A stretch of DNA of 63,989 bases, the filler included, from Thermoplasmatota archaeon (lineage in GTDB: Archaea; Thermoplasmatota; E2; JACPAO01; JAHFTW01): NCBI GenBank assembly GCA_041623215.1. It is 9 parts of 9 records of this genome, joined end to end, with 100 filler letters (N's around TTAATTAATTAA, not from the genome) between each part and the next. Parts side by side here need not be neighbours in the genome. Positions count along the whole stretch, not along the records: positions 38,185 to 45,531 come from JBFJXH010000084.1; 8 more parts are not named here. One strand, given 5' to 3'. The notes under the pieces were generated by a model. That model was given only the letters and a program-made list of their open reading frames with translations. It ran no database searches and was not told the DNA's origin. Below are positions 42,483 to 44,337 of the stretch, one piece after another (position 1 is the first letter of the stretch; each line of letters opens with the position of its first letter). The translations under genes were made by a program, and so were the position numbers.

Positions 42483-43061
42483 ATGCACCGCCGCATTCCC
42501 ACCCTCCGCATGTTTCTGACCGTCGCCGTCGCCGTTGCCATCGCCGTGCCTGTCGCCCTGACCGGGGCCTACGCCAGCCAAGACGACCCTGGGGCCGGGC
42601 AAACCTTCTCCGGGGACGGCTCGCAGGCGAGTGACGAACCTGAACGACCCGGCATGCATCGCTACCGAGGCTTCATCGATGTCTCGGCGCGAGCCGACGT
42701 CGGAACCCCCAGCCTCATCTTCAACGACCAAGAAGGTCGTGGCACCTACTTCGACATCGACGACTCCACCGGCGTCGTCTTCGAACTGGTGTGGGCCCCC
42801 GTCGACCCCTACCTCACCGGGGAGCGCGTTGACCTTCACTTGGATATTGACCACCCTGGTGGCCATGACGTTGGCATTGGTACCGGCACCGGTAGCCGCT
42901 CCGACCCCCTGACGTTCACGTACCTAGAACCCAAAGACGGCCGCTGGCACGCCCTAGCGGTCGCCGAAGATGCCGCTGCCCAACAGGAATACTACCTGTA
43001 CGTCAGCATCTTCCGCGACGGCCCCCCGCCCAGCGGTTACACCGTGTTCGATTACCTCTGA
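42483..43061 (+). CDS. Secreted hypothetical protein (beta-sandwich-like)
   Basis: Hydrophobic N-terminus; FELVW..VDLHL..GRW; TTTAAC upstream. Confidence 0.6.
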   Translation: MHRRIPTLRMFLTVAVAVAIAVPVALTGAYASQDDPGAGQTFSGDGSQASDEPERPGMHRYRGFIDVSARADVGTPSLIFNDQEGRGTYFDIDDSTGVVFELVWAPVDPYLTGERVDLHLDIDHPGGHDVGIGTGTGSRSDPLTFTYLEPKDGRWHALAVAEDAAAQQEYYLYVSIFRDGPPPSGYTVFDYL

Positions 43062-43393
43062 TCAAGACCTACACCCTCGCCCTCTTCCCCCTCGTTCCCT
43101 TGAATCACAACCACTTGCTGTTGTTGCTGTTGTTTCCCGGACGAGCCGCCGCTAACGGCTGCCACGATGGCACCGATGGCCCCCGTCATGACCAGAACGA
43201 CGGCCAGCAACACGAGGCCACCAAGCAGAATGGCCGCCGTAATCATGCCCTCCCAGTCCTCGTCACCCGGGCCATAACGGTCCGGCGCACAATCGCCAAT
43301 GCAGATGCCCCCGCCGTTCGAGGAGGATTGACTCGTGCAACCCGCCAGGAAGGCCGTCGAAACCAATAGCGCAAGCAGCAAGAAGCGGCCCAT
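43052..43393 (-). CDS. Small lipoprotein/membrane protein with poly-Gln tract
   Basis: FLAGC lipobox, CIGDC, TM helix, KQQQQQQVVVIQ. Confidence 0.6.
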   Translation of the reverse strand: MGRFLLLALLVSTAFLAGCTSQSSSNGGGICIGDCAPDRYGPGDEDWEGMITAAILLGGLVLLAVVLVMTGAIGAIVAAVSGGSSGKQQQQQQVVVIQGNEGEEGEGVGLDQR

Positions 43394-43490
43394 GGAAGAG
43401 CCGGGGTCAAAGCAACCCTTAACGCTTGCCGCCCACGCCTCGACGCCCGCCGATGCAGCAGAGACCGCCGTCTCGGCGAAGGATGAAAAG

Positions 43491-43564
43491 TGGGCCCCAT
43501 GCGATTCGAACGCACGACCTTCCGGTTATCAGCCGGATGCTCCACCAGACTAAGCTAGGGGCCC
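43491..43564 (-). tRNA. tRNA-Ile(GAT)
   Basis: GGGCCCC/GGGGCCC, TCCGG-CTGATAA-CCGGA, T-loop TTCGAAT. Confidence 0.94.
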
Positions 43565-43655
43565 TAAGGGCGCTCTTTGGAGCATCCGGCTGCGGTACCC
43601 CAATTTCTCCTGTTGGAGACGCGAGGTGCCCCGTACCGATGCCCCAGAGGACAGT
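43565..43655 (-). promoter_or_regulatory. Structured 5' leader of tRNA-Ile containing a 15-nt antisense-to-tRNA segment
   Basis: 43578-43592 is the exact reverse complement of 43530-43544. TATA-like CTTAAG at 43676-43681. Confidence 0.55.
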
Positions 43656-43909
43656 CCCGGCGACAATGACGCCGACTTAAGCACTACGGACGTGGGGCCT
43701 TGCCCCTCGTGGGTGCCCCATCATCGCCCTACCCTTGCCCGCGGCGGTCGCCTAGTCCTCGTGCCACCTGGCAAAGATGGGCTTCTCCGTCGGCCACGCC
43801 TGCGAGACGGCCAGCCCACCGGCCGACGCCCCCGGGGCCACCTAGCAAATGGTCCCAAACCACTAGGGCCCATTTGCCCCAACCGGCAACCATATCCGTG
43901 ACGGGGTCC

Positions 43910-44337
43910 AATAGAGAAGGGCGCACCCATGTGGTGCGTCAACCGGTGACGGACCCTTCGGGGAAACCGAACCGGGACCCAGAGGTAACGAAGGGTCACG
44001 CCATCCAACGGGAGAGCAGCGCGGCATACTCGCTGCCCCGGGCACGGACCGGAAACGGCACCGGCTCGGACCGAACCGGAGGGGCCACGGAAGCCTGCAA
44101 GGGCGACCGGCGGGCGCTGCGGCTTGTCCAATGCGTCTGACTGTAGGAAACCAGTCCACCTGATCCTGCTATCGCCTGGAGAAATCCAGGAAAGAACGGC
44201 CTTAGGGGGAAAAACCGCTGGAGCCCCAACGAAAGGACGGGCACAAGAGGCGCGTGTGGACCACCCCTGCCGCTGGGTGAACCGCACGATCACCTTTGGC
44301 CCGTGTGGGCGAGCCTTCCAGGCTCCGATGCTTTTTT
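43910..44337 (+). ncRNA. Putative large, highly structured non-coding RNA of unknown class (OLE-like candidate)
   Basis: No credible ORF; at least six GNRA-capped hairpins on the + strand, several 6-9 bp helices, terminal hairpin plus T6. Confidence 0.65.
44311..44337 (+). terminator. Hairpin plus T-tract ending the putative ncRNA
   Basis: GAGCCT-TCC-AGGCTC followed by TTTTTT at 44332-44337. Confidence 0.5.

Follow-up and report, generated by a model that had tools for sequence, protein, structure and literature searches.

A tRNA-Ile(GAU) gene of a Thermoplasmatota archaeon carries, in its own leader, a perfect 15-nt antisense copy of part of the tRNA that it encodes. The repeat is real and, among the relatives searched, private to this genome; an accident of DNA copying that has been tolerated is its most likely origin, and a switch built for the purpose is unlikely. 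We think it probable that a templated inverted copy entered the leader and was tolerated because the leader hairpins, as predicted, form first and hold the antisense segment until RNase P has cut.

The inverted repeat and its sequencing support

The locus lies on contig C84 of a 1.94 Mb genome assembly that has 63% G+C and is 88% complete; "the window" denotes the whole 63,989-nt stretch of DNA that was analysed, a series of contig pieces with N runs between them. An inverted-repeat search bore out the observation of an earlier note on this DNA that 43578-43592 is the exact reverse complement of 43530-43544. The antisense target is tRNA-Ile(GAU) nt 21-35, running from the 3' side of the D-loop through G34, which confirms that the leader antisense reaches the 3' side of the D-arm and the anticodon arm up to G34. 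The two arms are separated by 33 nt, and the copy stops 13 nt short of the tRNA gene (Table 1). Perfect inverted repeats with a loop of up to 80 nt number 7, 7, 2 and 1 at 12, 13, 14 and 15 bp across the assembly; the tRNA-Ile repeat is the longest of these and the sole 15-bp case. None of 3000 leader shuffles gave an antisense match of more than 11 nt, and the analytic chance of a 15-nt match is 1.1e-5 per leader, or 1.5e-3 for any tRNA flank of the genome. The gene is whole and is not in pieces joined by flanking helices, which does not fit a split or permuted tRNA-Ile.

Table 1. Features of the tRNA-Ile(GAU) locus, in window coordinates.
Feature	Position	Strand	Remarks
Trailer stretch	43443..43470	-	Possible pairing partner of the leader's last 27 nt; duplex -31.5 kcal/mol, P 0.025
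tRNA-Ile(GAU)	43490..43564	-	Intact; sole copy in the assembly (88% complete); contains the antisense target, 43530-43544
Proximal leader, 13 nt	43565..43577	-	Last 5 nt single-stranded in the predicted masked fold
Antisense segment	43578..43592	-	Antisense to tRNA nt 21-35 at all 15 positions
Second masking arm, adjacent	43593..43603	-	Predicted to pair with the antisense segment as an 11-bp hairpin of -12.9 kcal/mol (P 0.014-0.15, depending on window size)
Core hairpin, small, AACA loop	43606..43619	-	No significant likeness to other cassette cores
5' masking arm	43636..43652	-	Partner of the antisense segment in the predicted long leader hairpin; P 0.04-0.08 against shuffles
GTCG-led element common to family tRNA promoters	43651..43664	-	Predicted start at ~43652, from spacing in short-leader relatives
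TATA-like box, predicted tRNA-Ile promoter	43674..43681	-	Matrix score 14.6; weaker than most tRNA promoters of the genome

The earlier note had named a local inverted duplication created by assembly as a possible artefact. A single contig from run X1 spans both arms (43515-43701, 0 letters differing), as does a single contig from run X2 (43516-43853, 1 letter differing), and run X3 covers 43572-43724. All three runs come from one study, and the source sample may be among them, which leaves an artefact some room. However, the X1 and X2 contigs were assembled separately and both cross the two arms, the third run covers the leader and no joints are listed; the repeat stands, and we regard an assembly error as extremely improbable. 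The X1 contig departs from the window at 43697-43701, a point 20 nt upstream of the TATA box, beyond which it runs into 229 unrelated bases. Run X2 follows the window where X1 diverges, indicating that variable DNA adjoins the tRNA-Ile promoter.

Upstream of the promoter, 43700-44290 comprises ~600 hairpin-rich bases with no Pfam or Rfam match and no homologues in the relatives that were fetched. We considered this non-coding stretch as a candidate RNase P RNA and rejected it, the archaeal RNase P RNA gene having been found on another contig. Within it, 43846-43867 (minus strand) matches the anticodon arm (nt 24-46) of tRNA-Pro(UGG) of G023, a genome of another genus, at 22 of 23 bases. The match is to that tRNA and not to the genome's own tRNA-Pro (score 39; none of 150 random stretches exceeded 35), and the segment has its own inverted arm; a foreign element may have left it behind. 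Near the locus lies a DNA polymerase II small subunit-like gene, which together with the RNase P RNA identifies the genome as archaeal. The end of contig C84 (45154-45531) is repeated on contig C170 with 97% identity over 379 nt.

Relatives, promoter and leader length

We compared the locus with 31 other tRNA-Ile(GAU) loci, from 28 genomes of the order and one metagenome contig. No antisense of more than 9 nt was found within 200 nt upstream at any of them, the same-genus genome included; one local-alignment score of 29 stems from a neighbouring tRNA on the other strand. A gapped antisense pattern matched a single one of 197 genomes of the class, namely this genome (0 of the 196 others). A looser pattern was run over GTDB species, covering just tRNAs with this anticodon arm and an antisense ending within ~30 nt of the gene; it returned 20 loci, in all of which the antisense is at most 9 nt. 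Its Poseidoniales matches were rejected as conserved antisense, their apparent conservation being that of promoter bases that fit the loose pattern. The leader had no homologues at E<=0.001 in 31 family genomes, nor any in its own genome or in viral contigs, and a metagenome scan yielded one tRNA-Ile locus, with a short leader. Complementarity is thus not conserved in relatives, an outcome that the earlier note had named as refuting its reading. Because the antisense is private to one genome, covariation cannot be shown.

The promoter was located with a matrix trained on 25 of the 38 other tRNA upstream regions of the same genome. A GTCG element, 18 nt downstream of where the TATA box begins, is strongly conserved in 25 of these 38 regions and is present in Poseidoniales records too. 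The best tRNA-Ile site lies at 43681, where the score listed in Table 1 is reached with a spacer 1 nt short; the score at the usual spacing is 3.6. Typical tRNA promoters score 20-32, random positions reach 10 at a frequency of 1e-4, and none of up to 20,000 random positions reached 12. Among registers closer to the tRNA that would leave the antisense segment out of the transcript, no promoter had a score above 0, and the register that would start transcription at 43578 scored -7 to -12. The matrix thus supports the TATA-like box from which the earlier note predicted a ~90-nt leader, and lends no support to a start within ~13 nt of the tRNA. With a start at ~43652 the leader would be 88 nt long, and the antisense segment is probably transcribed.

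The GTCG element lies 100 nt from the tRNA here, compared with 14-35 nt at 25 of the 26 relatives' loci at which the distance is measurable (64 nt at the remaining one; five further loci are unmeasurable), indicating that this leader has gained sequence. The first 45 nt of the leader were tried as a homologue of the same-genus leader and rejected (rank 11-12 of 162, non-significant). G010, one of the relatives, holds three tRNA-Ile(GAU) matches (on C38, C77 and C216), two of them near contig ends.

Predicted folding of the leader and the precursor

All folding described here is secondary-structure prediction, with neither modifications nor tertiary contacts taken into account. The leader alone is predicted to form a single long hairpin from its first base (-39.6 kcal/mol, z -2.7), and the stability of the whole leader with the antisense held fixed has a P of 0.005. 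The competing leader hairpin drawn in the earlier note is therefore present in the prediction, but its best form omits the GGUAC/GUACC pairing, and the helix between the 5' arm and the antisense segment goes weakly beyond chance; it is equalled in 1 of 94 other leaders. The adjacent arm, which the earlier note did not remark on, looks like tRNA nt 21-31 apart from one deletion and two changes that are G-U-compatible, and is the source of a T-box look-alike discussed below. Together with the trailer, these arms give the antisense strand three possible partners other than the tRNA, each statistically marginal. The trailer-leader duplex score is matched by 7 of 284 family tRNAs, and this pairing is unpopulated in equilibrium folds. 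The 5' arm and the trailer were also considered as a direct repeat, which was rejected (P 0.04-0.12; 34 of 284 score as high).

For a precursor ending at the tRNA (162 nt), the antisense fold is predicted at -74.1 kcal/mol and the masked fold at -71.0 (strict cloverleaf) to -72.5 kcal/mol. These are the two mutually exclusive folds that the earlier note had proposed, and the antisense fold includes the helix, also foreseen there, that captures tRNA nt 1-4. The near-equality of the two energies arises because both folds use the same strand. At equilibrium the antisense misfold dominates for 6 of 7 precursor 3' ends at 37 °C, which counts against masking, and does so for 6 of 7 at 20 °C and 5 of 7 at 10 °C. 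At the 162-nt end, the predicted share of cloverleaf is 0.12 at 37 °C and climbs to 0.68 on cooling to 10 °C, but most of the longer 3' ends do not show this trend. Rescue of the cloverleaf by the trailer is predicted at 1 of the 7 ends only.

When folds are predicted in order of synthesis, transcripts of 70 to 116 nt have the leader hairpin as their best fold. The direct-path barrier to the antisense fold is predicted to be 13-19 kcal/mol while the tRNA grows and 22-32 kcal/mol after the acceptor stem closes; these estimates are rough, because a start with the tRNA part unfolded gave a barrier of just 4.6 kcal/mol. Deletion of the 5' arm brought the predicted acceptor stem to 0.0, as against 1.0 for a 13-nt leader, which fits the survival of masked variants only.

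We propose that templated DNA copying created the 15-mer from tRNA-Ile nt 21-35, likely recently and in a single lineage. The copying may have been a short template switch or the process that makes tRNA-copying cassettes in the family, two routes that are inseparable here. The leader hairpins would form before the tRNA emerges, and the cloverleaf would then close. RNase P would meet five single-stranded leader bases, cut a normal cloverleaf and free a closed leader hairpin, and no regulatory input would be required. Since tRNA-Ile(GAU) is apparently present as a sole copy, only a masked version could persist.

Copied tRNA pieces, rival explanations and known systems

Copies of tRNA pieces are frequent in the tRNA flanks of this family. 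We surveyed 353 tRNA genes of 11 family genomes. Each of 10 relatives contributed the best 30 of its 34-48 tRNA matches, together with any neighbours at the same loci, and this genome contributed the 38 genes that were left after one false ARAGORN call had been discarded. In this sample, with its best 30 matches per relative, own-tRNA copies scoring at least 26 comprise 24 direct copies upstream, 57 direct copies downstream, and 16 inverted copies downstream and 3 upstream; 3 of 955 trials with shuffled flanks reached that score. Most upstream direct copies among these best-30 loci span nt 1 to 20-27. Direct copies of the anticodon arm lie upstream of 11 of 322 genes, again from the best 30 per relative, against 0 expected, and just one of the 322 leaders, the present one, holds an inverted copy of that arm. 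In the leaders of G005 tRNA-Lys and G007 tRNA-Gln, a direct copy is followed by a loop, an inverted copy, 10 or 13 nt, and the tRNA.

The tRNA-Ile leader has no clear direct copy of a tRNA piece (P 0.18-0.45 in some tests, 0.03-0.15 in another). The idea that the leader core contains tRNA nt 1-21 in decayed form found no support (P 0.90), and the AACA-loop hairpin was rejected as a family motif (5 upstream cases, with enrichment no greater than that of other tetraloops). In six other leaders (L063, L064, L107, L234, L240 and L347), tRNA nt 1 to ~21-26 are copied, a hairpin is inserted and the anticodon arm is copied separately, which makes them pseudo-tRNA 5' halves split at the D-loop. Elsewhere in the present genome, a segment 14 nt downstream of tRNA-Glu(UUC) (G000:C24, 13861-13934) is antisense to nt 16-33 at 16 of 18 bases and is possibly a second case, although the segment is nearly palindromic. 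Two tRNA-Phe(GAA) genes (G000:C74, 143-217, and C101, 6129-6203) have direct copies of their 3' ends downstream (26 and 12 nt), with shared flanking blocks.

How the 15-mer arose can be explained in other ways. A G+C-rich leader may simply have happened on 15 complementary bases, its other helices being by-products of 63% G+C. The analytic chance of a 15-bp short-loop repeat anywhere in the genome is 0.27, and only one is present; events with a probability of 1e-5 are expected when very many tRNA genes are surveyed, and the individual masking helices have P values of just 0.01-0.15. On the other hand, copying of tRNA pieces into flanks is far more frequent in this family than the per-leader chance, the length of the leader is out of the ordinary, and its overall stability is improbable with the antisense fixed. 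We judge coincidence unlikely, though it deserves to be kept in mind. A further possibility is that the leader half of a functional leader-trailer stem was rewritten against the nearer tRNA arm, so that the stem and not the antisense is what matters; this is a variant of the copying account and not a separate function. Contiguous leader-trailer stems of 12-15 bp, with different sequences, occur in G010, G002, G011, G016 and G020, and the last 26 nt of the present leader match the trailer reverse complement at 19 positions. However, that match has a P of only 0.02-0.06, its pairing is unpopulated in the folds, and the same-genus genome G001 has no such stem (P 0.69), so that we give this origin very little credence. 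In the tRNA-Ile flanks L013, L383, L386 and L380-L382, from three genera, contiguous stems of 12-15 bp with differing sequences suggest that the leader-trailer helices of tRNA-Ile in those genera covary. The copying account has a difficulty of its own: the antisense arm is perfect and its partners are imperfect, a pattern that selection could equally explain.

Selection on function would take one of two forms. In the first, the leader is a young folding switch that sets the share of precursor reaching the cloverleaf, its masking hairpins racing the antisense helix in dependence on elongation speed, temperature or a binding factor. The two predicted folds lie 1.6-3.1 kcal/mol apart at 162 nt, the cloverleaf share shifts with temperature at that end, the antisense strand has three possible maskers, and the variant whose sequence departs from the window upstream of 43701 still has the promoter. 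In synthetic constructs, moreover, RNase P has been brought under the control of a leader (PMC7897497). By contrast, there is no conservation even within the genus, no sensor domain was found, and the temperature trend is lost for most longer 3' ends. Of the riboswitch-like architecture suggested in the earlier note, the two exclusive predicted folds of similar energy stand; no aptamer, sensor or known family came to light, nor a conserved ligand-binding domain or conservation with compensatory changes. A selected switch is, in our view, doubtful. Its most specific form, a newly evolved kinetic switch on tRNA maturation, derived from a selfish tRNA-copying cassette and set by transcription speed or temperature, in which the leader unzips its own D and anticodon arms, is more doubtful again. 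In the second form, the released leader acts in trans on tRNA-Ile as an antisense RNA, a modification guide or a T-box-like sensor. The 15-nt complementarity (duplex -32 kcal/mol) would allow this, and a T-box-antiterminator-like pattern can be drawn that is expected at 4e-4 per 88 nt and occurs in 1 of 406 tRNA leaders, the pattern having been chosen post hoc. But the antisense is predicted to be locked up in the free leader. Box C/D guide RNAs carry C and D boxes next to the guide, and box H/ACA guide RNAs have a split pocket, a K-turn and a 3' ACA. The leader has no UGA and so neither a C nor a D box, and the guide RNA that the earlier note had offered as an alternative fails; its complementarity is contiguous and its sole ACA lies in the apical loop, which does not fit an H/ACA guide. 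The T-box-like bulge is 5-6 nt long and has no leading U, the corresponding fold (-2.8 to -4.9 kcal/mol) is 8-10 kcal/mol weaker than the local hairpin (-12.9) and loses to it, and RF00230 matches none of 32 family genomes. Rfam searches of 43000-44300, 43560-43900 and the whole window returned tRNAs only. Action in trans is therefore highly improbable.

If the copying account is right, the locus is a small example of a tRNA gene that survived although its leader had acquired an antisense insert that could have blocked it. It would also be a further trace of tRNA-piece copying around tRNA genes in this archaeal family, a process of more interest than the single tRNA-Ile locus. If it were instead a switch, it would be a natural counterpart of a synthetic RNase P riboswitch and a new level of control over tRNA supply; a kinetic switch would be the first natural leader switch with tRNA processing as its output. 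Searches of the open-access literature brought up neither a natural leader in archaea that is antisense to the tRNA it precedes nor a description of the tRNA-copying cassettes.

The locus was compared with several known systems. As in the synthetic RNase P riboswitch (PMC7897497), 5' processing of the tRNA would depend on which pairing the leader adopts, but that construct is engineered, has an aptamer and sequesters the leader only, whereas this leader lacks an aptamer and would target the tRNA body. The T-box riboswitch (RF00230; PMC7583486) shares two short helices around a bulge ending in ACC, which can be drawn at 43577-43603. All known T-boxes have a leading U in the bulge (PMC7583486); here the bulge is not 7 nt and has no UGGN at its 5' edge, there are no Stem I motifs, terminator or ribosome site, and the T-box family is bacterial. 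The attL/attR tRNA fragments exemplified by Caldiarchaeum tRNA-Thr-F (PMC3293823) also place a piece of tRNA beside an intact gene with variable upstream DNA. Such integration scars are direct repeats of the tRNA end with a recombinase gene between them (PMC3293823), whereas the present piece is internal and inverted; the longest direct match within 200 nt is 7 nt, and the 8 neighbouring ORFs scanned contain no integrase family.

Template switching yields perfect reverse-complement inserts in one step (PMC5453318, PMC8794818). Those mutations resemble the present case in being short perfect reverse-complement copies, tens of bases from their source, private to a lineage and flanked by unrelated sequence, and they too create inverted repeats and RNA hairpins (PMC5453318, PMC8794818). 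They differ in that the source here is an archaeal tRNA gene and that the leader has no close homologue from which the four switch points could be placed. The leader also resembles the family's own tRNA-flanking cassettes. The copied piece here is nt 21-35, compared with tRNA ends (nt 1 to ~20, or the last ~20) in the cassettes, and no core is shared (best score 28 against 801 flanks, null 22-33); we therefore do not file this leader as a member. It nevertheless works like one: a gene-less, hairpin-rich stretch between promoter and tRNA holds a copy of the gene's own tRNA and lengthens the leader, the inverted copy ends 10-13 nt before the gene (13 nt here), and one end of the copy falls at the boundary of the D-loop, a frequent end point of the other copies.
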